NCBI GenBank assembly: GCA_030765145.1
Contig: JAVCDA010000010.1
Span: 119,344-183,343, forward strand
DNA length: 64,000 nucleotides
Direction: 5' to 3'
From: Candidatus Saelkia tenebricola
GTDB lineage: Bacteria > Omnitrophota > Gorgyraeia > Kaelpiales > Kaelpiaceae
In this document: in pieces, positions 17,449 through 45,588 of the stretch
Numbering within the stretch: the first letter of the stretch is position 1
How the letters are laid out: the number at the start of each line of letters is the position of its first letter
Translations under genes and position numbers: made by a program
Notes under the pieces: generated by a model
What the model was told of the DNA's origin: nothing
The model's database searches: none
What the model saw: only the letters and a program-made list of their open reading frames with translations

Positions 17449-18655
17449 CTAATCAGATAACATAACTGAATCATTTTCGGCAATCTGCATCTTAGGTAAA
17501 CTAAGTAGAATACTGGCTGCAGAGGTAACCTCTCTGACATCAATGACTTGAAGCTTAGCGATCAATGTGTTGCCTCGGTATATGGAAAATCCCATACCAA
17601 TTTGCACCCCATCTCTTCTGCCAATATCGATGATTATAAAACCTTCCTCTACATTAACAAAGACAACTCTTCCTTTAAGTAGCTCGTCTTTAATTTCTAT
17701 TCTGGGTAATTCTACAGCTTCGCCTTCAGTATCGTAATTTAGTTTTTTTATCTTTTCCAATGCCATCTCAAGATCCTGTTTTAATTTTGTAACCTCTAAC
17801 ACTTCGTCTTCCAAAACTCGATTAATATATCCAATCCTTTGATTGAATATTTCTTTTTCTTTTTTCTCTTTTTCGACATTCTGTTCTAACTGTGTAATTC
17901 TTTCGCTTATTTCCTTTTTTCTGTCCTGCGCCTGTGCAACCTTCATCTGAAGCGTATTTTTATCTCTTTGCATTTCTTCCACCTGCTTTATATATGAAAA
18001 CTTCTCTTTCTTCTCCTGCTCCAAAGATGCGCTTAAGGAAGACACTATCTTTTTAGTATCCTGAAACTTATTTTCTAAATTTTCTTTTTTATCCAATAGA
18101 TCATTTACAATATTATTTAAATTTTCTTTCTCCTTCTCAAACCTTGAAATCTCGCTATCTTTTTTCTCTAAAAGTCTTTCCAAACTACTAAGCCTTAATT
18201 CTAGATTGGATTTCTCCCGCAACAAATTTGACCAGAAACTGTCATCACCTGTGTTATTGTATTTTATATTCTCTTGGCTTGTAAAACTTGCTTTGACATC
18301 ATTCTTCTCCCGTACTAATCTAGCAACACTTTCCCGTAACCGCATATTTTCATCAGCCAGCTCCTTGAAGTTGTTTTCAGAAATAAGTTTTTCCTCCTCC
18401 ACTTTCGACAGATGTGTTTGATACTTATTAAGATTGGCCTGTATTTTTTCAATCTCTGACTTAAACTTGTCGAGATCAAACTCCAAGTCTCTATTTGTTT
18501 GATACCAAAGCACTTTTTCTTCTGTGTATCTGGAATAAATTTTTCTATTCTCTAACCCAAGCCAAACGGCAGAAATAACAGACACGCTTAAGAGCGTACC
18601 GCATAAAGAATAAATTACTGTTTTTACTGAGTCCGACATTTTCATATTGTTCTTG
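17449..18655 (-). CDS. membrane-anchored coiled-coil protein with a C-terminal small beta-rich module; last gene of the RND efflux operon
   Basis: Start taken at MKMSDSV, giving a 14-nt overlap with the upstream RND gene; the ORF-track start at 18792 lies inside that gene. One N-terminal TM helix, then about 280 aa of heptad-rich Glu/Lys sequence. The C-terminal GRVVFVNVEEGFIIIDIGRRDGVQIGMGFSIYRG block resembles the C-terminus of the OMF. Confidence 0.6.
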
Positions 18656-21600
18656 GTTTTGATATCCGCAAAATTTTTGTTACAACATATCGTACGTCTT
18701 CCATTATTATATACACACAGGGAATAACTAAAAGGGTTAAAATTGTTGAAACGCTCATCCCTCCAATAACAGTCTTTGCCAAAGGCGACCATAAATTGGC
18801 AGATTCGCTCCTGTCCACCGCCATGGGGATTAAACTACAAATTGTAGTTAACGATGTCATAAATATCGGTCTTATCCTGCTTTCGGCTCCTAAGAGCACT
18901 GCTTTCCTTAATTCCATCCCTTCTATTCTTAAAAGATTTATGTGATCCACCATAACTATAGCGTTATTAACAACAATACCTCCCAGCATTAACATGCCCA
19001 TCAACGCACCAATATTAATCGATGTACCAGTATAGTAGAGCGTAGGGATTACACCTATCGCCGCCAAGGGAACTGTAGTCATGATGATAAGGGGCTGAAT
19101 ATATGATTCGAAGAGAGACGCTAAAACCAAGAAAATCAGAATTAAAGCTACCCAAACTGCAAAGTTCAATTGCTTGTTATTCTCTTCCATCAATTCATAA
19201 TCTCCGCTAAAGCGATGTGAGTAATCATCCGGCATTTTAAAATCGCGAAGCGCTTCTTTGGATATTTCAATTGCCTTATCTAAAGAAAGAGCACCCCTAT
19301 TAGCGCTAACCTGAACCATTCTGGATTTATTCTTATGCCAAATCTCGCTAGGCGCAATATCAAATTTAAGATCTGCGATTTGCTTGAGAGGAACCTGAAT
19401 TCCGTTGCTGTTTACAAAAGTAAGGTTCTTTAAGTCTTTAAAACTATCTCGGCTTTCTTCTTCCATCCTCACCACTATCTCTACCTCTTTAGTCTTTGTA
19501 TGAAAAAAGGAGGCCCGCAAACCTCTTATTTTTCCATGCAACTGGTAGGAGATATCCTGGATAGTCAGCCCGTAAGTGCTTGCCTTATCTTGATCTATCA
19601 AAACACGAATCTCAGGCCTACCTTCTCTCATCCTTATCTTCTGATCCGTAATGCCTTCAACCGTACTTAATTTCTGCGCTATGCCCATGGCTATCTGCTT
19701 TAAAACATCATAATCATAACCATTTATATCTATAAAAATCTCGCTACTACCTACCTCCTGAGGCAATTCAAAATAAATAAAAGCGTCAAACTGTTTTGCT
19801 ATCTCATCCATCTTAGGGCGTAATTCCGTTATAATATCATCCGTCATCCGATACCTTTGAGAGAGAGGTTTTAGTTTTACATATACTTTCGAAGACCATC
19901 TTTCTATGCGAGAAGAAACAGTTTTAATCTCAGGAACTTCTCTCAAAATGCGCTCTACCATCGCAACAGCCTTATCAGACATCTCAAGGCGAGCACCCGT
20001 AGGCAATTCTACATGAGCGGTAAACTTGTTAAGTTCGGTAATGCCAATAAATTCCTTCCCTATTTGATTCCATAATGGCAACACAATTAAAAACACCGCT
20101 ACCATAAAAAACAAAAACTGATACCTTAATCGTAAAAAGCCACCCAATAGTTTTCTGTAAAATCTTCTGCTTTTTCTCACCTTGTCTTTACGCTTATTGA
20201 TAAATGGAATACCTCGACCAAGCTCCACCATAGATGAGGCTAAAGGCACCAGCGTTAACGCAACAAATAAAGATGCCAGCAAAGAATATACTACAGTCCA
20301 AGCCAAACCGCTATAAAGAATACGCATCTGTTTGCCTACAAACATAATTGGTAAAAATGCAACTACAGATGTAATGGTAGAAGCAACAATTGCAAGACTA
20401 ACTTCCTGCGCTCCATTTAAAGCTGCTAAACGCTTGTTAGCACCTGCCTCCTTTTTTTTAAAAATATTTTCTAATACAACGATTGAAGAATCCACCAACA
20501 TTCCTATCCCAAGTGCAAGCCCTGAGAGAGTCATAATATTTAAAGTCAAACCCTGCATAAACATTATTGTAAACGTTGCCATAACAGAAATTGGAATCGA
20601 AAGTGCAATAATAAAAGTCGGCGGCATATCGTGTAAAAATAACAGCAACACTATTACTGCCAGTGCACTGCCAAACATCAGAGATTTTCGCACAGTATCT
20701 ATGGCTTCTTGAACATACTCCGCCTGCTGGAAAGTAGGCCTGATGATCACGTCTTGAGGGATGATTTTTCTTATTTCCTCAAGTTCTTTGACTATCAACT
20801 TATTAACTTTGATAGTATTAGCCGTGGATTCTTTTTGAATATAAATGGAGACTACCGGACGAGCATCTACCCTTGATAAATCCATCGGGTCCAAAAATGA
20901 ATCCTTTATCTGAGCTACATCTTGAAGGCGTATCACAGAGCCCTGGGGTGTGAAACCCACTCCGATTCCTTTGATATCTTCTATTGTATTGAACTGCCCT
21001 AACAGCCTTATTAAGTACTCAATGCGTTTGCTTTCCAAATCACCGACTAAAATATCCAAATTGTTAGCTCCGACCATATCAATTAACTGCCCCAAAGATA
21101 TGTTGTAGGCTCTTAATGTTGATTCTTCTGTTTCTACTAAAATCTTTCGCTCTCTACCACCTGCAACCTCAATATTTGCTACCCCCTCCAGTCTTTGAAA
21201 CCTTGACTTAACTTTTTCGTCAACAATTCTGCGTAACATCTCCGGAGTATATTTTTCTCCGGTCACAGCAAGTATAACAATCGGAACATCAGTCTGCTGA
21301 TACCGAGCAATAACGGGCTTTTCAATTTCTTTGGGTAATTTATCTTTGACCCTGCCAAATTTTTCTCTCACCTCCAAAGAAGCAAAATCCATATTGGTCC
21401 CCGGCTCAAACTTTAAAATTACCCGCGATTCACCCTCTTCGGATATTGCAATCAATTCTTTCAGATTACTAACATCGCTCACCGCTTCTTCAACCGGCTT
21501 TGTGACCAAGCGTTCAACATCCGGAGATGGTATCCCACCTCTAATCCGTATAATAATACTAATGGTGTCATAGCTGTAATTGGGCATCAACTCTACTGGT

Positions 21601-21695
21601 AATCGAACTAAAGCAATATACCCGATAAGAACAATGCCTAAAAAAATCATTGCCATTGTAATCGGCCGTTTAATCGCAACGCTTGCTAATCCCAT
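18642..21695 (-). CDS. efflux RND transporter permease subunit (AcrB/HAE family), second of a tandem pair
   Basis: 1017 aa, 12-TM RND architecture with large periplasmic loops; conserved RND motifs. Confidence 0.9.
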   Translation of the reverse strand: MGLASVAIKRPITMAMIFLGIVLIGYIALVRLPVELMPNYSYDTISIIIRIRGGIPSPDVERLVTKPVEEAVSDVSNLKELIAISEEGESRVILKFEPGTNMDFASLEVREKFGRVKDKLPKEIEKPVIARYQQTDVPIVILAVTGEKYTPEMLRRIVDEKVKSRFQRLEGVANIEVAGGRERKILVETEESTLRAYNISLGQLIDMVGANNLDILVGDLESKRIEYLIRLLGQFNTIEDIKGIGVGFTPQGSVIRLQDVAQIKDSFLDPMDLSRVDARPVVSIYIQKESTANTIKVNKLIVKELEEIRKIIPQDVIIRPTFQQAEYVQEAIDTVRKSLMFGSALAVIVLLLFLHDMPPTFIIALSIPISVMATFTIMFMQGLTLNIMTLSGLALGIGMLVDSSIVVLENIFKKKEAGANKRLAALNGAQEVSLAIVASTITSVVAFLPIMFVGKQMRILYSGLAWTVVYSLLASLFVALTLVPLASSMVELGRGIPFINKRKDKVRKSRRFYRKLLGGFLRLRYQFLFFMVAVFLIVLPLWNQIGKEFIGITELNKFTAHVELPTGARLEMSDKAVAMVERILREVPEIKTVSSRIERWSSKVYVKLKPLSQRYRMTDDIITELRPKMDEIAKQFDAFIYFELPQEVGSSEIFIDINGYDYDVLKQIAMGIAQKLSTVEGITDQKIRMREGRPEIRVLIDQDKASTYGLTIQDISYQLHGKIRGLRASFFHTKTKEVEIVVRMEEESRDSFKDLKNLTFVNSNGIQVPLKQIADLKFDIAPSEIWHKNKSRMVQVSANRGALSLDKAIEISKEALRDFKMPDDYSHRFSGDYELMEENNKQLNFAVWVALILIFLVLASLFESYIQPLIIMTTVPLAAIGVIPTLYYTGTSINIGALMGMLMLGGIVVNNAIVMVDHINLLRIEGMELRKAVLLGAESRIRPIFMTSLTTICSLIPMAVDRSESANLWSPLAKTVIGGMSVSTILTLLVIPCVYIIMEDVRYVVTKILRISKPRTI

Positions 21696-21698
21696 AAA

Positions 21699-24600
21699 TT
21701 ATCCCTTAAATTCATACCACCTACCCGGACCATTAGGCCCTTTAGCAATTATTATTTCTTTGTCCACCAGGTCTTTAAGGTCTCTCGCCGCGGTGGCAAC
21801 TGAAATTTTAAAAATATCCTGACATTGCCGCCGCATAATTCTACCGTGTTGCTTTATATACAATAAAACTTCTTTTTGTCGTTTGTTTAATTCCGGGAAC
21901 TTCTTGAAAACATCCCTCTCTAACACTTTTTCCTCTATTTCAGGTTCAGATAATATAATTTTTTCTTCCATTATTTCTTGGACAACTTCTATTGTTTTTG
22001 CTTTCTCAAGAGGAGATTCTTTTTCGATCATTTTTACCGCAACTAAATATAGCGCCGGGACAACAAACAATGTAAGAATCGTTGAAGAAGATAACCCTCC
22101 AATAACAGCAATCGCCATAGATGCTCTTAGCTCTGCTCCTTCACTTAAACCTAAAGCTAGAGGGATTAGGCCTAACGTAGTAGTGAGTGCAGTCATTAAT
22201 ATTGGCCTTAGCCTATGTTGGCACGCTTCTATTGCCGCATCATATGGATTAACACCTTCTGCCCTTAGTCCATTAATACGGTCTAGCAATACGATGCCGT
22301 TATTAACAACAATACCTCCTAAAATTATCACACCTAAAAATACCACTATATTTAAAGTGGTGCCTGTAAGTAGAAGGGCTATACTTATTCCGATTAATGA
22401 AAGTGGCACTGAAAACATTATTACGAAAGGCTGCCAAAGAGACTCAAACTGTGCCGCCATAATCATATATACCAAAACAATAGATAGTATAAGAGCAAAC
22501 ATTAAATTCTTGAACGATTCTGCCATTTCTTTTTTCTCTCCGCTCATTTTAACCATATAATCTTTTGGCACTTCAATTGCCTCAATAACATTTTCTATAT
22601 CCTTGATAATTTCACTGAACCTTCTTTTATAAACATTGGCGGAAACCACAACAGTCCTTTCTTGGTCTAAACGTTTAATTTGGCTGGGCCCAATTCCTTT
22701 TGCAAGATAAGCAACATCGGCTAGAGAGACTTCCACCCCTAAGGGAGAATGAATCAAAATATTTCTGACTTTAGCTATATTTTCTTTATCTTCTTCCCGA
22801 AGTCTTGTTCTGATATCATATTCCCTGCCTTCTTCTTTATATTTTGACGCTACATACCCTTTAATTGCAGCCTGAGTAGCCAAAGAAATACTGTTAACCG
22901 AGAGATTATATAGTGCAGCTTTTTTCTTCATTACATTCACTTTTATTTCAGGCTGAGCCGGAGCAAGGTCACTCTTAATATCGTATAAGCCGGAAATATG
23001 TTCAAACCGAGCGATTAAATTCTCAGAAAGAGTTCTTAAGGTGTCTATCTCCTTCCCTTTTAGCTCTATGGTAACAGGCTTACCTCCCTGCATAGCAGCC
23101 TTAAAAATTGTCTCCTGTAAAATATATTCTATTTCCGCCTTTTCTAAATCAGTACCTATTAAATCTGTTTGCAATTGCTGAACCACTCCCTGACTCTTTC
23201 TGTATTCTGCGTCTCTTTTAGACATCTTTTTAAGATTGACGACAATTTGTGCTTGATGTGAGCCCATAGTTGCCACAGCTCCGCCATACGCTTTTTCCTT
23301 ACTAGAACCAATTGTCACACCTACACCTTTTATGTCTGGATAACCGAGTAAAATACGCTCTATTTTTTTAACAACTCCATCTGTAACTTCAATCCTGCTA
23401 CCTGTAGGCATATCTATCTTAATCAAAAATTCACGCTGATCTACTTTGGGCATTAATTCTCTATCAACCGTATTCAGCAAGTAAAAAGCACCCATTGTTA
23501 TCAAGATGATAATTGCAAAATAAAAATATTTGACTTTAAGAAAAGCTTTCAGGCTCCGAGCATATGAAGATTGCAATATCCGCATCCAAGCCCATTCTTT
23601 TCGAACAGTCTTTTCGGTTTTAACTTTAGCTGCAAGTCTTGGGATTAAAGATAACGCTACAGCCAATGATGCTAAAAGCGCAAACGTTACGGTAAAAGCT
23701 AATTCTCTGAAAAGTTGCCCCGCAACTCCTTCTACAAACATAAGCGGCAGGAACACAGCAATGGTTGTAAAGGTAGAAGCTGAAATTGCAGTGGCTACCT
23801 CACTAGCTCCAGAAGATGCCGAAAGAGATGGAGATTCACCCATCTGTCTATGGCGAAAAATATTTTCAATAACAACAATTGCATTATCAACCAACATTCC
23901 TACTCCAAGCGCAAGCCCCCCTAAAGACATTATGTTTACCGAAAGACCTCTGAAATACATCAAGCTAAAAGTAAGCAGAATTGAAATAGGAATTGAAAGC
24001 GCAACTATAACAGAGCTGTAAATGTTCATAAGAAACAAGAACAAGACTATAAATGCCAATACTCCGCCTTGAAAAGCTGCGTCTCTCACCCCATTTATAG
24101 AATCTTCAATAAATTTGGACTGATCATACACAATCTCTATTTCTGCTCTACCTTTAATCCTTTCTCTAATTTCATCCAATTTTTTATTAACATCTTTAAC
24201 GACTTTTATTATATTGGCTCCTGCCTGCCTCTGAATTCTAATTGAAATATTTTCTCTTCCGTTATACCGCGATATGTTAGTTAAATCTTTCAACGAATCA
24301 ACAACTTTTCCTAAATCCTGAACATAAATAATTCTTTTATCAGATGATTCTCCTTTCATCTGCCTAATATATTCTTCATATTGCGTTTTAGGTGGGTCAA
24401 CTTCCTGCACATCAACAACTACATTTCTTATTTCTTCGACAGCCTCAAATTCTCCCATCGTTCTAATCATGTATTCATAGAACGTTTCTTTTATTGTCCC
24501 GGCAGGAAAAGTAAAATTAGTTTGCTTAATTGCTTCGGCAACTTTTAAAATCGGAATTTTATTGGCATATAATTTACCTTGATCCAATTCCACTAAAATT

Positions 24601-25145
24601 TCTCTTTCTCTTCCCCCCACAATACCGGCCGAAGCTATGCCTTCGATTTTTTCAAGCTCATCTTTGATTTCTTTTCTGCACAATTCCCGCAATTGCCTGG
24701 ATGGTATATCACCTTTTACAGAAAGAATCGCAACCGGAATTTCAAAAGGATTAAACTTCATAACAATCGGATCTTCAGAGCCTAAAGGCAATCTCTCTTT
24801 AACGAGATCAATCTTTTCTCTTACACCAAGTGAGGCAAAATCCATATTGGTGCCCCAATCGAAATCTAAGATTATAAGCGATAAACCTTCTTTAGAAAGA
24901 GAGGAAATTTTTTTAAGCCCGTTTACCGTTCCTACCGCTTCTTCCATTATTTTTGTTATTAACGTTTCTACTTCCTCAGGAGAAGCATTCTCATAAGTCG
25001 TAACAATCGTAATTTGCGGATAGGAAATCGAAGGGTACAATTCCTGGGAGAGCTTCATCCAAGAGATAACACCTAAAAGCCCTATTCCTAAATAGAACAT
25101 TGTAATTGTTACTGGTCTCCTAATAGAAAATTCAGGCAGGTGCAT
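21699..25145 (-). CDS. efflux RND transporter permease subunit with about 105-aa C-terminal cytoplasmic extension resembling a winged-helix DNA-binding domain
   Basis: 1148 aa. RND core through about aa 1040. The tail ...KRQKEVLLYIKQHGRIMRRQCQDIFKISVATAARDLKDLVDKEIIIAKGPNGPGRWYEF has an HTH-like pattern seen in Fic/RecG-type wHTH tails. Confidence 0.85.
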   Translation of the reverse strand: MHLPEFSIRRPVTITMFYLGIGLLGVISWMKLSQELYPSISYPQITIVTTYENASPEEVETLITKIMEEAVGTVNGLKKISSLSKEGLSLIILDFDWGTNMDFASLGVREKIDLVKERLPLGSEDPIVMKFNPFEIPVAILSVKGDIPSRQLRELCRKEIKDELEKIEGIASAGIVGGREREILVELDQGKLYANKIPILKVAEAIKQTNFTFPAGTIKETFYEYMIRTMGEFEAVEEIRNVVVDVQEVDPPKTQYEEYIRQMKGESSDKRIIYVQDLGKVVDSLKDLTNISRYNGRENISIRIQRQAGANIIKVVKDVNKKLDEIRERIKGRAEIEIVYDQSKFIEDSINGVRDAAFQGGVLAFIVLFLFLMNIYSSVIVALSIPISILLTFSLMYFRGLSVNIMSLGGLALGVGMLVDNAIVVIENIFRHRQMGESPSLSASSGASEVATAISASTFTTIAVFLPLMFVEGVAGQLFRELAFTVTFALLASLAVALSLIPRLAAKVKTEKTVRKEWAWMRILQSSYARSLKAFLKVKYFYFAIIILITMGAFYLLNTVDRELMPKVDQREFLIKIDMPTGSRIEVTDGVVKKIERILLGYPDIKGVGVTIGSSKEKAYGGAVATMGSHQAQIVVNLKKMSKRDAEYRKSQGVVQQLQTDLIGTDLEKAEIEYILQETIFKAAMQGGKPVTIELKGKEIDTLRTLSENLIARFEHISGLYDIKSDLAPAQPEIKVNVMKKKAALYNLSVNSISLATQAAIKGYVASKYKEEGREYDIRTRLREEDKENIAKVRNILIHSPLGVEVSLADVAYLAKGIGPSQIKRLDQERTVVVSANVYKRRFSEIIKDIENVIEAIEVPKDYMVKMSGEKKEMAESFKNLMFALILSIVLVYMIMAAQFESLWQPFVIMFSVPLSLIGISIALLLTGTTLNIVVFLGVIILGGIVVNNGIVLLDRINGLRAEGVNPYDAAIEACQHRLRPILMTALTTTLGLIPLALGLSEGAELRASMAIAVIGGLSSSTILTLFVVPALYLVAVKMIEKESPLEKAKTIEVVQEIMEEKIILSEPEIEEKVLERDVFKKFPELNKRQKEVLLYIKQHGRIMRRQCQDIFKISVATAARDLKDLVDKEIIIAKGPNGPGRWYEFKG

Positions 25146-25173
25146 TTTTATTTTCCGCGGTTAATTAGCAGTA

Positions 25174-26424
25174 TTAAAATAATTTTTCCTGTGTTTCTAT
25201 GATTTTTATCCCGGTACCGGCTGAAAATCTTTTCATACCCGGAGTCTCTATAACAATCAGAGCGCCTTCTGTAAGCCCCTTTTTAATAACAGCATAATCT
25301 GTCGTAATATACTCTACGGTAACTGGAGCATATTTAATCTTTTCTTCTTCTATCATCGCAGCGTAATAAGCACCTTGTTGAATTGATACAGATGAACTCG
25401 GTACAACCAGAGCGTCTTTCTTTCTGAATACAGCAACATCTACCCGGGCAAACATTCCGGGTTTTAACAGTTTGCCTGGGTCTAAAACTCTGACCCTGAT
25501 GTTTAATGTGCGTGTTCTTTCATCAATTGCAGGGAAAACAGTTTCCACATAACCAAAAAACACTCTTGTGGGATAGGTGTCCACCTTGACTTTTACTTTC
25601 TGCCCGGATTTAATTTTAAACACATCTTTTTCTATGACCCCTATTTCTACAAATGTATTGGCGGCATCTAACAAAGTAAAAATAATGTCATTAGGGGTTA
25701 TAAATTCGCCGACATCTTTCTCTTTTTTGTTGATAATACCTGCTTGAGGGGCTTTCATATCAAGTTTTTCTAATTTGACCTTGCTTAGTTGAAGTTCTTT
25801 TTTGCTTATATCTATTTTTGCCTTGGATACTTCAAGCTCCGCCTGCAATTGATCCAGCCTGGCTTTTATAATCGCCCCAATTTCATAAAGCCTTTTGACT
25901 ACTTGATATCTTTTAAGAGCCGCTTTATATTCAGCCTCTGTAGCATTCAATTTTGCCTGAGCCCATTGAATTTCAAGCTTCACATCTTTTGAATCAAGGG
26001 TTGCTAACAAATCTTGTTTTTTGACTTTATCTCCTTCTTTAATTTTGATATTTTTTATTACCCCATTGACTTCAAATCTAAGCTCTATCTCCGGAATATT
26101 CCTAACAGTCCCTACCGCAGGAAGTTCATCGGTAAAATCCGTGAATGCAAGCTTATAAGCCTTAATGGGGATGCTTTGCTCCGGTTGCTGCGGCAGAAGA
26201 GATATCGGCGCTTTGGGTTCGGATTTTTCCTCTTCTTTTTTAAAAGGAGTTTGCTTTTTATCTGCCACTTTAGATGAAGCAGTCAAATCCGAGGAAGGAG
26301 CAAAAAGCCTACGCACACCGACAAACAGTAAAATTACAATAATAATGTTCACTGCAATGATAACTAAACTACGCAGGGTAAATATTTTTTTAATAACGGA
26401 TAAAATGTTGGTATTTTCTTTCAT
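25174..26424 (-). CDS. efflux RND transporter periplasmic adaptor subunit (HlyD/MFP family)
   Basis: N-terminal TM anchor, coiled-coil hairpin, lipoyl and beta-barrel segments. 4-nt overlap with the OMF gene. Confidence 0.85.
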   Translation of the reverse strand: MKENTNILSVIKKIFTLRSLVIIAVNIIIVILLFVGVRRLFAPSSDLTASSKVADKKQTPFKKEEEKSEPKAPISLLPQQPEQSIPIKAYKLAFTDFTDELPAVGTVRNIPEIELRFEVNGVIKNIKIKEGDKVKKQDLLATLDSKDVKLEIQWAQAKLNATEAEYKAALKRYQVVKRLYEIGAIIKARLDQLQAELEVSKAKIDISKKELQLSKVKLEKLDMKAPQAGIINKKEKDVGEFITPNDIIFTLLDAANTFVEIGVIEKDVFKIKSGQKVKVKVDTYPTRVFFGYVETVFPAIDERTRTLNIRVRVLDPGKLLKPGMFARVDVAVFRKKDALVVPSSSVSIQQGAYYAAMIEEEKIKYAPVTVEYITTDYAVIKKGLTEGALIVIETPGMKRFSAGTGIKIIETQEKLF

Positions 26425-28667
26425 TGTAATATCTCCACGTTATCTCCTATTCTCAATCCTTTAAAATCCCTGTCTATGCCTTTCTCCAGATAACAGGCTG
26501 CTGTGTTATTATCAATTCTAGCAGGAACAAGCAAAGCATATTCTTGGCCATTTCTATAAACCATGACTTTGCTGTTGGAACTTAACCCCTTGCCTTGACC
26601 AATATTGAGTATTGCCATTCCATACTGATTGTTAACTCCAATAATCCTTCCTTGAATACCCGTAGGAATAATTTGGGTTATTTCTTTCTTAAACTCAGGG
26701 AGCTTGAAAGGAGTGTAGCTTACACTCGTTGCAGGATGATTGCTGAAGTTTTCCCAAGCAGCAATAACAGGTTTTTCTGTCACAAGGCTCATATAGCTTT
26801 CCACTCCGCAAGCTTTGGAGATACTGGAAAGAGCAATGTAATAGCCCAGCAAAGCCCTGTTATAATTTACCTCTTCGTTGGCATAGTCTAAATACCCCTG
26901 CAAAAGCTCTGTGATGTTTGCCTCTTCTACTTTCATTCTACCTTCAGTAACTTTTAATCTTCTACTATGGAACTCCAATTTTTGAAGAGATGTTTCAATC
27001 TGAAAAAGAGAGGAGACATAATTTGCATATGATCTCTCAACTTCGGAAATAATAGATTCTTCCGTTTCCACTTCTTCGTTGACTGCTTTCAAAAATTCTA
27101 CGCGTGCTGTTTTTTCATCGGAAGCCATACTCAACCTATCAACAATAGACCATTCCAAAGATTTGGTAAAAGATTTTGTCGTGTCTTCTGTGCTAAACAT
27201 TCCCACAGGTCTATTCTGCTGCACCACCGAAGCATCCAAAGAGCTGTTGCCGATAGGTCTAGACACTTTTAATCCTAGATACCAGCTATCACGGAATTCT
27301 TCAGGTTCTGATTCATAATCTTCAGCTATTTTGCCGACTTTACCGGTCAAACTAAGATGAAATCTGTTTTTTGATTTTGCAATCTGTTCGTTCAAATTGT
27401 TGAATTGTGTTACTAATTGACGTATCTTAAGTTCCGACCTCTGTGTTTTAGCAATTCTTAAGGCCGTCTCTAATCCTATATTAACTTTTCCGAAAGGCAA
27501 CCAATTGACCAATGTAATCTCCTCGTCGCCAGGTAAATTTAACGTCTGCCTGAACGCTAACTCGGATAGAGAAAGTTCTTTCTGAGTCGAAACAAAAAGA
27601 AACTTTATCTGTTGATAAGACGAAGATAGCTGTTTATATTCAACCTCTGTAATCAAACCTTGTTGATATAGCAATTTGCCCATTGCTAATAATTTATTAG
27701 CTTCAGCCAATAGTTTATTAAAAGTGTCCCAGTTCATTCTGTTCAAAACCACATTGTAAAAATTTCTTTTAAGTTCCAGGGTATAATCTGTAGAAAGTTG
27801 CTGACGTTCCATCAAAGCAAGTTCCATATTAATCTTAGCCTGCTCCAGTTTATATTGCAGTTCGCCGCCATATGAAAGAGGTTGTTCAAATTCAATTTCA
27901 GCTGATTTAGATATAATATTTACCTTACCTGTTGTTTCACCTACCGTATCAACTAATCGAACAACTGCTGTGGGGAAAAACTGTCTTCTTGCTTCCTGAG
28001 CTTTCATTTGTGCAAGTTCATATTGTTCGGTTGCAATTTGTAAAGGCCTATAATTTTCAATTCCTATATCAATCCACCGCTGCCATCCCAGTATAGCCTG
28101 TTGCCATTCTTCTTCATCTTGAGGACCTATTTTTTGCTCAGGAGTAAAACTAAATGATTTAGGTAATTCTGTTTCTTCTTCTTTACTATTTTGACTAAAA
28201 ACCACTTCTTTAATTTCGGGAAAAATTATCTTAATAGTATTATCATCAGAGATAATATTATGTTTGAACTCCTTGCTGCCCTTAATAACAATCCCATCAA
28301 CCTTTCCTGCTTCACTATCTCCAGGTTCATAGCCCGGATAAAATTTTACAGTTGCATATTGTAATCCAAACGAGTTCATCTCTAACTTGAATTTTTCCAT
28401 ACAAAGTAAATTACTCCCAATAAGATCCACAAAAAGAGTTTGCTTGTCCTCCATCCAGTAAGTGTGATATAAAGGGCTGCTATTAAATGATATGGTTATT
28501 GCAAACTTTTTATCTAAAAACCCTTTTTGGATATCTTTAAGAATAACCGTATCATTAACATGATACGGTTGGGAATAAGCAAATGATACGGTTACTAAAA
28601 ACCAGATTACGAATGATACGGTTGTTAATTTCTGATTTTTTTTCTCTATCATTCTTAACATAACCAT
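26421..28667 (-). CDS. TolC-like outer membrane efflux factor with N-terminal AMIN-like extension and extra C-terminal beta module
   Basis: The central 430 aa show the two-repeat OEP/TolC pattern. The N-terminal 200 aa include an AMIN-like segment (FAITISFNSSPLYHTYWMEDKQTLFVDL). The C-terminal 110 aa (GRIIGVNNQYGMAILNIGQG...VMVYRNG) are similar to the C-terminus of the coiled-coil protein. Confidence 0.8.
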   Translation of the reverse strand: MVMLRMIEKKNQKLTTVSFVIWFLVTVSFAYSQPYHVNDTVILKDIQKGFLDKKFAITISFNSSPLYHTYWMEDKQTLFVDLIGSNLLCMEKFKLEMNSFGLQYATVKFYPGYEPGDSEAGKVDGIVIKGSKEFKHNIISDDNTIKIIFPEIKEVVFSQNSKEEETELPKSFSFTPEQKIGPQDEEEWQQAILGWQRWIDIGIENYRPLQIATEQYELAQMKAQEARRQFFPTAVVRLVDTVGETTGKVNIISKSAEIEFEQPLSYGGELQYKLEQAKINMELALMERQQLSTDYTLELKRNFYNVVLNRMNWDTFNKLLAEANKLLAMGKLLYQQGLITEVEYKQLSSSYQQIKFLFVSTQKELSLSELAFRQTLNLPGDEEITLVNWLPFGKVNIGLETALRIAKTQRSELKIRQLVTQFNNLNEQIAKSKNRFHLSLTGKVGKIAEDYESEPEEFRDSWYLGLKVSRPIGNSSLDASVVQQNRPVGMFSTEDTTKSFTKSLEWSIVDRLSMASDEKTARVEFLKAVNEEVETEESIISEVERSYANYVSSLFQIETSLQKLEFHSRRLKVTEGRMKVEEANITELLQGYLDYANEEVNYNRALLGYYIALSSISKACGVESYMSLVTEKPVIAAWENFSNHPATSVSYTPFKLPEFKKEITQIIPTGIQGRIIGVNNQYGMAILNIGQGKGLSSNSKVMVYRNGQEYALLVPARIDNNTAACYLEKGIDRDFKGLRIGDNVEILQ

Positions 28668-28683
28668 ATCATAACCGTATCAT
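28545..28683. repeat. cluster of six copies of the 11-bp motif AACCGTATCAT / ATGATACGGTT (both orientations) spanning the OMF start codon and first 40 codons
   Basis: Copies at 28545-55, 28560-70, 28583-93, 28613-23, 28662-72 (variant AACCATATCAT) and 28673-83. The first two form a 26-bp palindrome. Confidence 0.85.
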
Positions 28684-28786: not shown

Positions 28787-29536
28787 CTATTCGGGGATTT
28801 GTTCAATACTTAACAATTCTTCCTGCCTAACCATGATATGCGCTAATCTTTCCAGCTCCCTTATTAATCGTTCCTTTTCTTTAGGGTCTTTTAGAGGCGG
28901 TATTTTTATGATTACTTTATTCTGTCCAAATATCACACTCACTAAAATATCAACTTCATACTCCAATAAAGTATCCTTCTGTTTAATTTCTTGGGGTATT
29001 TTTTCGATAACGCTCTTCGACTTTTGATCGGATACTGCTGATTCCTTGTCTATTTTTACTCTTAAGAGATATTGCTGACTTTGTCCAACATTGTCTTCCT
29101 GTTTTCTTTTGAAAGCAGATTGCATGATAATCGGGATAGATTCCTCTATCTCTTTTATTAAATCCGCAGCTTTAATTGTTCCTAATATTTCTTTATTTCT
29201 ACCCGTTTCTGAAAATTCAATTTCAATAGATTCAACACCAAAAACTTCTTGCGGTAAAATATACGCGTGATAATCTCTGCCCAACGGCGAGTCTACAGTA
29301 AAAGGCTGTTCGGTTCCAGCATAGGGATAATACAAGACTTCGCTTTCTACTTTCTTTAACGGAGAGTATATAGGCTTACTGAATTTGTCTTTGCTGCCCA
29401 AGCTATAATCCCATTCCACAGGTGGTGCGGCATACACCTTGTTACAGATGCATATAGAACTGGATAGAAAAACAGCAACGTGGCAAAAAACTTTCAGATT
29501 TTTCTTATAAGTGAGGCAATGCAATTTTATTACCAT
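28787..29536 (-). CDS. hypothetical secreted protein
   Basis: ORF with an internal signal-peptide-like segment (VFCHVAVFLSSSICICNKVYA), so the real start may be downstream of the track start. No family recognised. Confidence 0.45.
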   Translation of the reverse strand: MVIKLHCLTYKKNLKVFCHVAVFLSSSICICNKVYAAPPVEWDYSLGSKDKFSKPIYSPLKKVESEVLYYPYAGTEQPFTVDSPLGRDYHAYILPQEVFGVESIEIEFSETGRNKEILGTIKAADLIKEIEESIPIIMQSAFKRKQEDNVGQSQQYLLRVKIDKESAVSDQKSKSVIEKIPQEIKQKDTLLEYEVDILVSVIFGQNKVIIKIPPLKDPKEKERLIRELERLAHIMVRQEELLSIEQIPE

Positions 29537-31136
29537 ACTCTTTACGCAATTCTTTTAGAGTTTTTACTAACTCTTCTATCTCTTTTCTGCTACCGTCTGC
29601 ATTTAGGCTTTGCGCAGCTGCTAATAAGATATCCTCGTCTTCTGCGTTGTCGGTACCTACAATTTTCTGCCTGGCTTGCGTCAGCACATTAATCTTGGCA
29701 GCATCATAGTTAAGCCCGTCAATTATCACTTGCGTCGCAACATCCCAGCATGTTTGAACAAAGCCAGTCATATCGACTGCTTGCATAATATCACTTAGAT
29801 CGTCATCGCGCAAGGCTTTCCAGACAATTTCTGCATATTTCTTTGCCAGTGTTACATCCCCGCTAGTCCCAGGCATAATATTGGGTGATGTTTGACTTAT
29901 TGGGCTAAGCCCTGTTAAAGGGTCAAATTCATCCACTTCAACAATCCCTATTCTAAAGAAATCCTGACTACCGTCTTGCTCATGAACAGCTACCAAGGAA
30001 TTAACAACTCTGTCATTTTCATCGTACTCATAGAATTTATAAGAAGTAGTTACTCTATTGGGGGCTTGATCATCATTATAGTGTACTGCTTCAACTACAG
30101 AGGGCAAATATTTTAAACCTCCCTCCTGATCATAAGAAATATGAAAATCCAATACATTTGTGTCTTCCTCATAGCTATATGAGGTTTCACCGCTATCTAT
30201 AGTAACCAAACGGTGATAACTCCTAGCTTCTCTATACGAAAAATCCATATCTAAGACATCTTCAGTGATATATTGGGTGACACCCCATTGATCGCGAAGT
30301 TCCTGATACATCTTAAGTGCATAGCCAAAAGCATTAGATTCTTTATTATTGAAAGCCCACCAGTCTCCTGCACATTCTGAATATTTCATATAAAGGTAGG
30401 AAGGGGCATGATAAACATATGCCGTAGATGCATCATTCGAATCAATCTGTGCATAAGTTGGCGTCAATTGTTTGGAAAAAATCCAATCCGGAAAATGCGT
30501 GCTTTCGTCTCGAAGAGATACATGCAATGGCCTTGTCGTCACATTACCCAGCTTATCTTCGCTAGACATATTAAATGTAAGGGAAAAACCTTTGTAGGCA
30601 TGTTTGCCTGAAGTTTCTTCAATCTTTTTTATTACCTCTTCTAGATCCTCTTTGTTTTGGACAAACTTGTTAGCAAAATATTTCAATATTTTCGTATTAG
30701 TGCCCGAATATGTAATAGAACCGTCTTCTGCAATGCTTTTTCCAGGCGTAGCAGATCTAACAGGTTGATTAAAAAGCTCTGCACGCCTGTTTTCTATAAC
30801 TCTAAAACGCTCCCTGACATAAGTTAAAATCTGTAAAGCGGCACGTAATCCCTGATAGCTTTTTTTGGCATCTTCTCCTGTTTTTCTTTTTATCAGCATT
30901 CCGCGTACCTGCTGCTCTCTGTCAAGATATTCTTCCAAAGACAATTCCGGAGAAAGTGCTTTATAGATTTCTGCAATAGATCCAAATTCTGCTGAATCCA
31001 AGGGCTGCTCATTTGCAGTACTTTCATTAGCATAAGATGCTATATGATATGAAACCCCACCAACAAAAATAGACATAATTATAAAGTGTTTTAAAATGTT
31101 TTTCTTCTTCACATCATATTTATACCATATATACAT
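29505..31136 (-). CDS. hypothetical secreted protein (543 aa)
   Basis: N-terminal signal/anchor (IIMSIFVGGVSYHIASYA). No family recognised. Confidence 0.55.
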   Translation of the reverse strand: MYIWYKYDVKKKNILKHFIIMSIFVGGVSYHIASYANESTANEQPLDSAEFGSIAEIYKALSPELSLEEYLDREQQVRGMLIKRKTGEDAKKSYQGLRAALQILTYVRERFRVIENRRAELFNQPVRSATPGKSIAEDGSITYSGTNTKILKYFANKFVQNKEDLEEVIKKIEETSGKHAYKGFSLTFNMSSEDKLGNVTTRPLHVSLRDESTHFPDWIFSKQLTPTYAQIDSNDASTAYVYHAPSYLYMKYSECAGDWWAFNNKESNAFGYALKMYQELRDQWGVTQYITEDVLDMDFSYREARSYHRLVTIDSGETSYSYEEDTNVLDFHISYDQEGGLKYLPSVVEAVHYNDDQAPNRVTTSYKFYEYDENDRVVNSLVAVHEQDGSQDFFRIGIVEVDEFDPLTGLSPISQTSPNIMPGTSGDVTLAKKYAEIVWKALRDDDLSDIMQAVDMTGFVQTCWDVATQVIIDGLNYDAAKINVLTQARQKIVGTDNAEDEDILLAAAQSLNADGSRKEIEELVKTLKELRKEYGNKIALPHL

Positions 31137-31148
31137 ATAAAAATCAAG

Positions 31149-31727
31149 TTACCTGAGATAAAAATTATCGAAGTATGTCCGACCCCCTGTTTGATCAATA
31201 TACCGTTTGTCTATAAATACATTGATTTCAACGAGTTCGGATAAATTCTCCAACTTGAGGCTTTTCAAGGGGATTTCTACCTTATACCAATCATTCCCTG
31301 TTTTAGCGTTCATTACCGTTACGATTTTACCTTTTTTATCTTCAAAGGTTATCCCGATGATTTTGGAATAGCCTACTGCCGGCTCCCCTTTAACCCAGAA
31401 ACCAAAATATTGATACCCGCTAAAATCATATCCTGAAACATGGAGCCAGATTCCACCCACCAAATCATTGTCAGAGCGAAAATCGTAATCCAATGCGAAT
31501 GAATGACCCTCTTCCCCATATTTTACGAGACTGGACTTCGAGCCTACAAAGGTAGTATGTCTATCCTCCATAAATTCTTCCCATACACCGCCTTCAAATG
31601 TTTCCTGCTCAAAATCCTGTAACAGAAAAATCTTTTCCTTTGTTTCTGTCAATTCCTCTGTATACACTTTATCTGCGCAAAAAAGAAAAACTATTCCGAC
31701 CGTTAAAACAGCTATTCTTATATTCAT
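31149..31727 (-). CDS. secreted single-domain protein, third paralog of the CBM-like domain
   Basis: Signal peptide MNIRIAVLTVGIVFLFCA. Shares DYD(V/F), G.W......DFS.YQ.F.FWVKG and TYFDN motifs with ORFs at 14120 and 11487. Confidence 0.6.
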   Translation of the reverse strand: MNIRIAVLTVGIVFLFCADKVYTEELTETKEKIFLLQDFEQETFEGGVWEEFMEDRHTTFVGSKSSLVKYGEEGHSFALDYDFRSDNDLVGGIWLHVSGYDFSGYQYFGFWVKGEPAVGYSKIIGITFEDKKGKIVTVMNAKTGNDWYKVEIPLKSLKLENLSELVEINVFIDKRYIDQTGGRTYFDNFYLR

Positions 31728-41776: not shown

Positions 41777-42014
41777 TAGTTGTGTTGTTTTCTAATAAGT
41801 ATTTGTTTTATAGTATGTATTAGTAGTGTTTGTGTAAAAGTGGATAATAATATAAACATATATGTATCAATGGTTTATTGATAAAAGTGTATCTGTGTAA
41901 AATGTTGTTAAAAAGGTGGTTCTTTTTTTTATTGATGTATTTATCCACATATCCACATTTTATCCACAAGCAATCTATGTGTTTTTAAGGATCTTTTCCT
42001 CAAGTTTATCCACA
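41777..42014. other. candidate oriC: AT-rich unwinding region plus DnaA-box cluster
   Basis: Perfect TTATCCACA at 41941-49, 41960-68 and 42006-14. ATATCCACA at 41949-57. Inverted TTATCCACT at 41839-47. An AT-rich stretch at 41777-41940. Confidence 0.7.
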
Positions 42015-44091: not shown

Positions 44092-45570
44092 ATGATGGAG
44101 AAAAGAATTCTTATTGCAACGGGTCTTGCTTTTTTAGTTTTGTTAATGTATCAGCCGTATTTAAAAAAGTTGGGTGTGCAGCCACAAAGAAAAACAGTTG
44201 TAACGCAAGCCAGTAAAAAGCCCAATGATACGGTTGTGCCGTATGATACGGTTGATATTGAGACTGTTCAGACAGATGATACGGTTGCTGATACGGTTTT
44301 AGAGAATGATTTACTCAAGTTAACTGTTAATGAAAGAACAGGCACAGTAAAAGAAATCTATTTTTGGGATCATGGCACAAGCGCCATTCTTTACTCATTG
44401 CAAAATAAAGGCTTAGGATTATTTGCGCCAACCGTATCAACCGTATCATTTCAAAGTCGATTAGGTTTCAGTGCAAATGATATGGTTCTGGAAGGCCAGA
44501 GAGTAAAACGGTCGTATAAACTGGAGGAACATATCCTAACTACTGTTTTTGAAGGAGAAAAAGAAATTAGTATTTTTATTCCGACTAAATACGATGTTTC
44601 TCCCAGGGAAGCACGGTATGTAAGAATGGTGATTAAAAACACAGATGGTCTAAGCTATGATAAACCTTCCAAACTTATGAAGAATGGAGGAACATTACAG
44701 AACGTGGACTGGTTTGCACTGTCCTTTAGGTATCATTCTTTACTGTTTGATCCAGACAATATTGTAGACTTAGGAATAATTCCATCTTTAAGTAGAGATG
44801 GTTTTATTATCAAAATCAAGTTAGATGAGGCGCGTTTTAGCATAGCAACTTATTTAGGTCCCAATTCTGCCAATATTTTGGAATCCTATAATCAGAGTTG
44901 GCTTGGCGTGTTAAATTACGGGACATTGAACAATGTGGTTAAAACACTCCTAGTATTCTTCCATAAAATAACTCACAACTATGGCAGTGCTATTTTACTA
45001 CTGGCGATGCTGTTAAATTTGATTTTCTCTCCACTTACGCTTAAGTCTCAACGTAGTATGAAAGGCATGCAGAAGCTGCAACCGGAGATACAAGCTTTAA
45101 AAGAGCAATATAAAGATAATCCACAAGCTGTTAACAAGGAAATGCTACAGCTTTATAAAAAGCATAAAGTTAATCCGATGGGAGGATGCTTGCCGATGCT
45201 ATTACAAATCCCGGTATTTATCGCCCTCTATAACACGCTGATGAGAAGCTATGAGCTCAAAAATGCTACTTTTTTGTGGATTAAAGATCTTTCAGCACCA
45301 GACAGACTTGTTATGCTTGGCAAGGCCTTGCCGTTGATAGGCAATGAAATTAACCTTTTACCTTTGTTGATGGCGGGACTCATGTTTGCACAGCAAAAGC
45401 TTTCTCCCGCAGCCAAGATGCCGGGAGCAGGAGCGCAGAATCCCAATATGATGCTTTGGCTTATGCCGATATTTATGGGAGCAATATTTTATAAGTTTCC
45501 AGCAGGGCTTGTTCTTTACTGGTTTACTAATTCTCTGTTTATGCTGGTGCTGCAAATGGCTCGAAAGTAA
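44092..45570 (+). CDS. yidC: membrane protein insertase YidC
   Basis: N-terminal TM anchor, periplasmic P1 domain, conserved C-terminal 5-TM insertase core (GGCLPMLLQIPVFIALY...). Confidence 0.95.
   Translation: MMEKRILIATGLAFLVLLMYQPYLKKLGVQPQRKTVVTQASKKPNDTVVPYDTVDIETVQTDDTVADTVLENDLLKLTVNERTGTVKEIYFWDHGTSAILYSLQNKGLGLFAPTVSTVSFQSRLGFSANDMVLEGQRVKRSYKLEEHILTTVFEGEKEISIFIPTKYDVSPREARYVRMVIKNTDGLSYDKPSKLMKNGGTLQNVDWFALSFRYHSLLFDPDNIVDLGIIPSLSRDGFIIKIKLDEARFSIATYLGPNSANILESYNQSWLGVLNYGTLNNVVKTLLVFFHKITHNYGSAILLLAMLLNLIFSPLTLKSQRSMKGMQKLQPEIQALKEQYKDNPQAVNKEMLQLYKKHKVNPMGGCLPMLLQIPVFIALYNTLMRSYELKNATFLWIKDLSAPDRLVMLGKALPLIGNEINLLPLLMAGLMFAQQKLSPAAKMPGAGAQNPNMMLWLMPIFMGAIFYKFPAGLVLYWFTNSLFMLVLQMARK
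44225..44487. repeat. second cluster of seven copies of the ATGATACGGTT / AACCGTATCAT motif inside the yidC 5' coding region
   Basis: Copies at 44225-35, 44243-53, 44276-86, 44289-98 (10/11), 44430-40 (10/11), 44439-49 and 44477-87 (variant ATGATATGGTT). Confidence 0.85.
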
Positions 45571-45588
45571 CTTTTCACGTGAAAAGTC

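Follow-up and report, generated by a model that had tools for sequence, protein, structure and literature searches.

The DNA analysed here is a 64-kb stretch (the window) of a metagenome-assembled genome (MAG) of Candidatus Saelkia tenebricola (Omnitrophota), and searches in the Saelkia genome covered this window. The description of the genus Saelkia is based on MAGs from Ace Lake (PMC8542988). The window contains an 11-nt word, ATGATACGGTT, gathered in two clusters. Cluster A (28487-28683) covers the promoter, the start codon and the first 60 codons, including the signal-peptide codons, of a gene for a TolC-like OMF that opens an efflux operon. Cluster B (44225-44487) occupies codons 45-132 of yidC, whose product in the window was 100% identical to the deposited YidC of Candidatus Saelkia tenebricola. 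Omnitrophota, a phylum without cultured members, comprise very small bacteria that may depend on hosts, and we know of no regulatory system characterised in them. The features of the two clusters are given below; loci of other genomes carry labels of the type L001.

44092 to 45570, plus strand: yidC (492 aa), host of cluster B; Pfam 60KD_IMP, E=3.9e-58
44225 to 44235, plus strand: site B1, ATGATACGGTT, yidC codons N45-D-T-V; in the same place in L001, L003, L007 and L008
44243 to 44253, plus strand: site B2, ATGATACGGTT, read as YDTV; kept in all loci of relatives examined
44276 to 44286, plus strand: site B3, ATGATACGGTT, read as DDTV
44288 to 44298, plus strand: site B4, CTGATACGGTT, read as ADTV; exact 9-mer core at 44290
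44430 to 44440, minus strand: site B5, inverted copy, plus strand AACCGTATCAA, read as PTVS; codons ACC GTA TCA the same in six of seven orthologues, with ACA in L001
44439 to 44449, minus strand: site B6, inverted copy, plus strand AACCGTATCAT, read as TVSF; identical in seven of seven orthologues
44477 to 44487, plus strand: site B7, variant ATGATATGGTT, read as NDMV; the same variant here in L003, and an exact copy slightly upstream in L005, L007 and L008
28688 to 28716, minus strand: promoter-like TTGACA-17 nt-(TGa)GAAATT just upstream of A1, a consensus match; conserved in L250, L251 and L200
28673 to 28683, minus strand: site A1, ATGATACGGTT, first half of a tandem 22-mer, at about +1 of the OMF promoter
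28662 to 28672, minus strand: site A2, variant ATGATATGGTT, second half of the 22-mer; includes the annotated OMF ATG at 28667
28613 to 28623, plus strand: site A3, inverted relative to the OMF gene; TTVSF, in the signal peptide
28583 to 28593, plus strand: site A4, inverted relative to the OMF gene; VTVSF
28560 to 28570, plus strand: site A5, inverted relative to the OMF gene; third frame, QPYH
28545 to 28555, minus strand: site A6, direct relative to the OMF gene; NDTV
28487 to 28497, plus strand: site A7, variant ATGATATGGTT, inverted relative to the OMF gene; ITISF

With at most one mismatch allowed, ATGATACGGTT occurred 15 times in the 64 kb (0.96 expected), and its 9-mer core 11 times (0.18 expected). 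Chance is excluded as the source of the clustering: 14 of the 15 sites fell into two clusters of seven, each within at most 263 bp, and in 20,000 runs of random placement two such windows held six sites at most. The single copy outside the clusters corresponds to the chance expectation for a window of this length. Both gene-internal clusters hold copies in both orientations, and the sequence that they have in common is limited to a core of ~13 nt. B5 and B6 overlap by 2 nt and make up the inverted pair AACCGTATCAACCGTATCAT (44430-44449). At the OMF locus, two copies reach upstream of the annotated start codon, one wholly and the other overlapping it. No helical phasing of the sites was evident from their offsets. 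An earlier note on this DNA, made from the sequence alone, had reported seven copies in yidC, and we recovered them at the positions it gave, with exact ATGATACGGTT at 44225, 44243 and 44276 and with the overlapping inverted pair and the variant at 44477; its fourth copy is also real, starting at 44288 and not at 44289. The second cluster that it placed at the OMF gene was confirmed as well, again with seven copies (28487, 28545, 28560, 28583, 28613, 28662 and 28673). As it had proposed, the two clusters are the same element, with a direct-plus-inverted layout common to both. The variant ATGATATGGTT, which differs by one base (CG to TG), was seen in the same slot across orthologous arrays (28662-28672 and 44477-44487 in the window; L250, L251 and L003). 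By its position it looks like a maintained second class of site, perhaps bound more weakly, and not like decay.

The yidC array was compared between the window and six orthologues (two Saelkia-like, two from Kaelpia species and two from more distant lineages; 50-72% protein identity). All six had 6-7 copies of the 11-mer at matching positions, the copies standing at offsets of 0, 18, 51, 63, 205, 214 and ~240-252. In the protein alignment, DTV and PTVSTVSF were conserved inside an otherwise variable N-terminal segment, and the residue preceding DTV was always N, Y, H or D, that is, a residue whose codon ends in AT. In the codon alignment, GAT ACG GTT and ACC GTA TCA ACC GTA TCA were unchanged across orthologues; at neighbouring conserved residues, e.g. 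G-L-G-L, synonymous sites varied freely. Considering only degenerate codons with an invariant amino acid in the seven genes, the codon was identical in all seven in 7 of 10 motif columns, but in only 13 of 144 columns elsewhere (Fisher p=2e-5), and pairwise third-position identity was 0.90 in the motif versus 0.49 elsewhere. The invariant ACG makes up 15% of the Thr codons in the window. Moreover, the word is read in three coding frames, as DTV, as TVS (on the opposite strand) and as PYH. Frozen synonymous sites, the use of three frames and the fact that the clusters share the core alone together exclude a repeat kept for its peptide, a local expansion by chance and the insertion of a mobile element. 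To judge from the codon alignment, the DTV, TVS and PYH peptides are a by-product of a constraint on the DNA. Conserved 'DTV' and 'TVSF' peptides of this kind therefore call for caution in annotation and in work on evolutionary rates, because the constraint that they reflect lies in the DNA and not in the protein.

The earlier note had listed recurring peptides in the two proteins, and as a description this was accurate (NDTV, YDTV, DDTV, ADTV and PTVSTVSF in YidC; TTVSF, VTVSF, QPYH and NDTV in OMF). Its argument that they speak against a pure DNA element fails in view of the three frames, the copies upstream of the OMF start, the intergenic copies and the frozen synonymous positions. These frozen positions and frames, together with the copies upstream of the start codon, likewise exclude a protein tandem repeat. 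It had also considered that close relatives might lose the motif and keep the peptide by other codons; the opposite was seen: in near and far relatives alike, the motif persists in the same codons. A uniform distribution, which it had likewise allowed for, does not describe the window. Nor did we find support for its suggestion of a restriction-modification or methyltransferase target, the word being clustered at promoters and 5' ends and neither dispersed nor avoided.

More generally, it is highly improbable that the word is an uptake sequence, a restriction-modification or methylation target, a mobile-element remnant, a peptide repeat or a chance expansion. Uptake sequences are similar in length, stand in both orientations and have preferred in-gene frames, and the Neisseria DUS and the Pasteurellaceae USS are likewise words of 10-12 bp that are conserved in a clade and tolerated in genes in certain frames and in weakly constrained segments. 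However, DUS and USS are dispersed at ~1 per kb, while all excess copies of the 11-mer in the 64 kb lie in the two 5'-end clusters, with one copy outside them, and a DNA uptake sequence was rejected on this ground. The short shared core, the three frames with the additional intergenic copies and the rarity of the word in viruses (4 hits in 2.9 million viral contigs) also stand against this group of explanations. The positions are also fixed among orthologues, without presence/absence polymorphism. An insertion of the MITE or RPE type was set aside because there is no extended homology between the clusters and copy positions are kept down to 50% protein identity.

At the OMF operon, where promoters were assigned as consensus matches, the tandem 22-mer begins ~5 nt past TTGACA-17-GAAATT. 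In L250 and L251 the same 22-mer, ATGATACGGTTATGATATGGTT, is followed by ATG, with the start codon included. The relatives at 68% and 56% YidC identity have the same arrangement of the OMF start, with promoter, 22-mer, inverted signal-peptide copies and a direct copy, and share with the window the offsets 0, 11, 60/73, 90, 111/113 and 128. In the more distant L252, L257 and L258, a strong TTGACA-17-TATACT follows the sites after 0-13 bp, and more copies stand in the first codons. A promoter scan offered the alternative TTGAGA-18-TATGAT in the window, in which the junction of the 22-mer serves as the -10. This raises the question of whether the tandem 22-mer is itself a module for promoter and translation start, with TATGAT at the junction as the -10 and a leaderless mRNA beginning at the following ATG. 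The 11-nt period also gives chained AUGA mini-ORFs (open reading frames), and 10 of 34 distinct 22-mers have an ATG within 0-3 nt, including the real starts of ndk (L160), OMF (L200, and with a variant 22-mer in the window, L250 and L251) and parA (L202, L224 and L242). Nevertheless, we consider such a module very unlikely, as it leaves unexplained the single yidC copies at 9-36 bp, the inverted copies, the sites upstream of the -35 (L252, L257 and L258) and the arrays of 17-20 copies described below, and as the distance from the 22-mer to the parA start ranges from 3 to 243 bp. A promoter for an ECF sigma factor (AAC...CGTAT) has the wrong spacing.

Direct and inverted copies of one word can also form a helix in RNA. 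According to this assumption, the copies would act through long-range pairing that governs translation or stability, or as the target of a small RNA or an RNA-binding protein. In fact, both orientations occur within each gene-internal cluster, and the predicted fold of the yidC 5' region pairs B3/B4 with B5/B6 (-77.6 kcal/mol, z=-3.85). Yet such a fold follows automatically from direct and inverted copies of the same word, and a structure would permit compensatory changes, while the word is invariant across unrelated genes and genera, so that no covariation is seen. Many tandem pairs are direct only and unable to pair, copies face either way with respect to transcription, and where a pair stands before the -10, as some do, it is not transcribed. 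There was no Rfam match at the sites. We consider an action at the RNA level very unlikely as well, and a structured cis-regulatory RNA was rejected for the lack of an Rfam match and of covariation and for the direct-only pairs.

The word is not confined to Saelkia. A scan of species-representative genomes with the pattern GATACGGTT-N1-30-GATACGGTT was too weak, most of its 120 hits being chance and ~8 loci informative; it found exact copies in Omnitrophota MAGs and in three MAGs labelled Planctomycetia or Planctomycetales by their submitters. The motif-bearing MAGs labelled Planctomycetia are L028, L040 and L126, and L028 has the gene order of Omnitrophota. A stricter scan of metagenomes gave 120 loci, among which peptide-level and chance hits were set aside (RTX GNDTV repeats, an ABC-transporter motif, a Bacteroidetes 1,120-aa protein and a giant-virus-like contig). 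The search of other genomes proposed earlier was thus productive, with the 11-mer present in many Omnitrophota MAGs besides those labelled Planctomycetia. Since both contexts, yidC and the efflux operon, recur in many genomes, the suspected tie to genes for membrane biogenesis and export is not accidental. The array was found in the origin-proximal dnaA-yidD-yidC-parA-parB-ndk block of ~27 loci, and at least 11 loci had sites at the 5' ends of RND operons. Within the block its place varies by lineage. Saelkia and Kaelpia have it within the 5' coding part of yidC; in L028, L182 and L230 it lies in the yidD-yidC spacer and first yidC codons; in others it is an exact 22-mer 3-243 bp upstream of parA, often beside parS (11 loci immediately upstream of parA); and L160 has it between parB and ndk. 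Exact tandem 22-mers also stand in intergenic DNA of many genomes, with unconserved flanks and in no fixed orientation to the gene next to them; copies are spaced 9-36 bp apart.

Further contexts were observed beyond this block. The 22-mer precedes a gene for a conserved 82-aa protein with two transmembrane (TM) segments and ends 4-7 bp before a TATAAC-like -10. This Omnitrophota family of 81-89 aa (..GGGTPEAPR.TGFIGLLLG..) has no Pfam or NCBIfam match and no homologue in the window, and the 22-mer was always upstream of its genes (L023, L136, L143, L147, L152, L171, L179, L235, L240 and L244); in L023, L171, L235 and L240 the 22-mer is flanked on its other side by a tRNA gene. Sites also occur upstream of genes for giant or secreted proteins, including a two-partner-secretion (TPS) exoprotein. 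In the long leaders of such genes we noted c-di-GMP-I riboswitches (L023 1565-1640, L040 7510-7597 and L126 3623-3715, with two further, weaker matches in L126), each with a motif 22-mer ~240-680 bp upstream; one riboswitch-led gene encodes a TPS-domain exoprotein of 2,047 aa. In L189 (6298-6516), L199 (760-1003) and L212 (1727-1982), the word forms arrays of 17-20 copies, (GAT/GCAT)GATAC(G/A)GTT, repeated every 12-13 bp, and shorter arrays stand in L154, L229, L245, L167 and L186. The 17-20-copy arrays start at the stop codon of a gene for a 507-aa SLFN_AlbA_2/HATPase_c_4/HTH_11 protein, and their setting looks like a defence island because of neighbours such as McrB-like AAA_5, DUF4268 and IrrE/HTH_3. 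In L130 (2332-2462), an IS200/RAYT-like transposase gene has five in-frame 30-bp tandem repeats (VAPIVAQNDT), with the motif in each.

The window contains, in all likelihood, the replication origin (oriC), as indicated by a cluster of DnaA boxes and the switch in GC skew. The skew changes sign near 42-43 kb, dnaA, dnaN, gyrB and gyrA lie left of the origin, and rnpA, yidD, yidC, parA, parB and ndk lie to its right. Six DnaA boxes (four exact TTATCCACA and two with one mismatch) occupy 41839-42014, in the AT-rich dnaN-dnaA spacer and its edges, one of them just within the dnaA 3' end. In relatives, a DciA gene was seen between dnaN and gyrB. Both clusters of the 11-mer lie within 13.2 kb of oriC, the yidC array at 2.2 kb from it and 1.1 kb upstream of parS and parAB. 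A perfect parS-like palindrome, CTTTTCACGTGAAAAG, fills 45571-45586 of the 18-bp yidC-parA spacer, a position kept in all six relatives; it differs from the canonical TGTTTCACGTGAAACA at outer positions, and an initial scan for canonical parS with at most three mismatches found none. The parS-like site of L028 is TGTTCCACGTGAAACA, and that of other Omnitrophota loci TGTTCCACGTGGAACA. The 11-mer resembles DnaA boxes and parS in that all are short words grouped within a few kb of the origin, some of them in genes, the DnaA boxes and parS as protein-binding words; it matches neither, and canonical DnaA boxes and the parS-like palindrome are separately present. Its best register agrees with TTATCCACA at 5 of 9 positions, and it is not palindromic as the 16-bp TGTTNCACGTGNAACA-type parS of ParB is.

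The shifting place of the array within the conserved origin-proximal block hints at a positional role. Based on this, the arrays might mark origin-proximal DNA for organisation or anchoring, possibly at the membrane, in the manner of ram/RacA, and the nearness of both window clusters to oriC is in keeping with this. On the other hand, no nearness to an origin is known for the tRNA/small membrane-protein, giant-gene-leader and other RND contexts (L252, L257 and L258), and placement at the -35, the +1 and the start codon looks regulatory. We regard a structural role of this kind as unlikely.

From the constraint on nucleotides, the conserved positions and the placement at promoters and 5' ends, we infer that the 11-mers are probably protein-binding DNA sites. 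A candidate for the binder is encoded by the efflux operon itself, whose features are:

18642 to 28667, minus strand: operon OMF-MFP-AcrB-AcrB; Pfam OEP, HlyD_D23 and ACR_tran twice
26421 to 28667, minus strand: OMF (TolC-like); Pfam OEP
25174 to 26424, minus strand: MFP; HlyD_D23
21699 to 25145, minus strand: AcrB with winged helix; ACR_tran
21702 to 21899, minus strand: C-terminal winged-helix domain, the last 66 residues of this RND permease; HTH_DeoR match and AlphaFold2 model
18642 to 21695, minus strand: second AcrB; ACR_tran

The same gene order was found in L250, L251, L252, L257 and L258. A gene for a 447-aa coiled-coil protein with weak SMC-like matches (17449-18792, minus strand) directly follows the second AcrB and is conserved there in L250, L251 and L252, and therefore appears to be part of the operon. 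The AlphaFold2 model of the permease-fused domain has a three-helix-plus-wing fold (pLDDT 93), and a linker of 45-130 residues, rich in E, K and P, joins it to the permease. AcrB-type permeases have their C-terminus in the cytoplasm. Across Omnitrophota there is little or no variation in the recognition region ..S(V/I)(A/P)TAARD.. and in the wing GP.GPGRWY, and an invariant recognition region across the phylum matches an invariant target word. Among the closest 120 permease homologues, essentially all from Omnitrophota, the fusion is the rule. In some genomes the winged helix is split off as a separate ORF of ~67 aa, and the matches to a profile of the domain were all short Omnitrophota fragments or split ORFs. 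A sequence search of the PDB with the domain gave no informative match. Motif sites were present at the operon 5' end in 6 of 6 operons in which the winged-helix end of the permease was sequenced (the window, L250, L251, L252, L257 and L258), so that in each of them, as with an autoregulated operator, the sites stand at the 5' end of an operon encoding a DNA-binding domain. In contrast, the L259 operon (56% identical), whose permease stops right after TM12, had no site at one mismatch or fewer in 21 kb.

Could a different protein bind the sites? One alternative is that they are operators for a global regulator of envelope genes, a soluble transcription factor whose gene lies elsewhere, the permease domain being irrelevant or binding something else. 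The motif loci are indeed coherent (yidC, the RND operon, the small two-TM protein, two-partner-secretion and other large secreted proteins, and parA/ndk), and many of them have no RND operon on the sequenced stretch. However, no small DNA-binding-protein gene recurred among the 61 genes with sites upstream, and the sole DNA-binding domain that tracks the sites is the permease fusion. ROK regulators, whose genes are frequent neighbours of RND operons, are weakened as binders in particular, as two such genes lie beside the motif-free L259 operon. We rate a soluble factor as rather unlikely. That the permease-tethered winged helix is the binder is our tentative proposal, which we hold with somewhat less than even confidence. 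Several observations weigh against it. The Foldseek neighbours of the domain (MarR, AdcR, MepR, the Z-alpha domain and winged helices of Fic and AlbA_2/HATPase_c_4 proteins) all had E-values >1e-3, a generic match of fold. The co-occurrence sample consists of six positives, three of which are close relatives of one another, and one negative. The motif stands in loci without an RND operon on the sequenced stretch (upstream of parA/ndk, of the small membrane-protein gene and of giant/secreted genes), and the 17-20-copy arrays adjoin a different HTH-domain gene, so that a soluble regulator encoded elsewhere would explain the data equally well. Finally, seven strictly conserved sites in a coding region exceed the needs of a simple operator.

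Nevertheless, on balance we favour, by a modest degree of belief, the statement as a whole that the clusters are operator arrays for a conserved sequence-specific DNA-binding protein, with the permease winged helix as its most likely binder. The sites would be docking places on double-stranded DNA for a protein conserved across Omnitrophota and closely allied MAGs, and purifying selection on the nucleotides themselves keeps them. Inside genes they are accommodated in tolerant protein segments of low conservation, in any frame that yields suitable residues. Bound at cluster A, over the transcription start, the start codon and the first 60 codons, the protein would control the efflux operon, which amounts to autoregulation if the permease domain is the binder. 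Sites at and downstream of the +1, as in Saelkia and Kaelpia, would suit repression or a roadblock; those of more distant lineages lie just upstream of the -35. Cluster B may be a second, equally conserved platform that regulates yidC-parAB transcription, holds the DNA in a nucleoprotein complex, or both. The variable orientation and the spacing of 9-36 bp fit recognition of double-stranded DNA by single domains, and one tethered domain per site, on a flexible linker at the cytoplasmic C-terminus of the permease, would explain an invariant word with loose spacing and orientation.

A further-reaching proposal, which we regard as doubtful, is that the RND permease doubles as a membrane-anchored DNA-binding protein, its winged helices gripping the ATGATACGGTT arrays at its own operon and in or near yidC-parS-parAB and thereby tethering DNA near the origin, together with genes for envelope biogenesis, to the inner membrane. 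If so, the abundance or state of the pump, or the capacity for membrane insertion, would be linked with how strongly yidC, parAB and the pump operon are transcribed and possibly with where the origin is placed. If the fused winged helix binds, the transporter itself would be a membrane-tethered DNA-binding regulator and a natural case of origin-proximal DNA held at the membrane. Independently of this, the motif is a concrete, testable cis-element with unusually clean evidence of selection at the DNA level in an essential gene, and its contexts can be defined (a membrane insertase, chromosome-partition genes, an efflux operon and secreted giant proteins). Operator-like site arrays are already known as a kind of element; what is new is this word, the strictness with which it is conserved in the coding region of an essential gene, and its association with a DNA-binding domain that is fused to a transporter. 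We found no description of the word (primers alone) or of RND-winged-helix fusions in the searchable literature, which is incomplete.

Several known systems share parts of this arrangement. ToxR, CadC and TcpP also fix a winged helix to an inner-membrane protein, have repeated promoter sites and couple a membrane event to transcription, but theirs is an N-terminal OmpR-like domain on a single-pass periplasmic sensor. The candidate binder in Saelkia is a C-terminal MarR/DeoR-like winged helix on a 12-TM RND permease (ACR_tran), presumably trimeric. It is therefore not a member of the ToxR/CadC family, although it may work alike. Efflux repressors such as MarR, MepR, AcrR and TetR likewise have an operator over the promoter or start of an efflux operon linked to the regulator, and MarR and MepR were the closest structural matches of the fused domain. 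Those proteins, however, are soluble dimers on one or two palindromes, whereas cluster A has seven non-palindromic, loosely spaced sites extending 190 bp into coding sequence, and there is a second array in an unrelated essential gene. The heptads of the omega repressor (pSM19035) and the parC/ParR and tubC/TubR systems use many copies of 7-12 bp in both orientations for promoter control and complex assembly, and the 17-20-copy arrays of related metagenome loci resemble them. Their arrays are contiguous, belong to plasmids or phages and have ribbon-helix-helix or TubR proteins as their binders, unlike the Saelkia sites, which are chromosomal, irregularly spaced and inside coding sequence. OmpR/PhoB boxes are two direct repeats phased at 10-11 bp that abut or replace the -35. 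For the 11-mer, exact 22-mers of 11-bp period are common and often stand at the -35 or +1; however, inverted copies and copies set 9-36 bp apart are conserved just as well, and the sites have no linked OmpR-type protein.

Several other ORFs of the window had no Pfam match. Two, of 710 and 1,456 aa, lie at its left end (12-6502, plus strand). Three more, of 249, 543 and 192 aa, lie upstream of the OMF operon (28787-31727, minus strand) and are syntenic in L250, L251 and L200.

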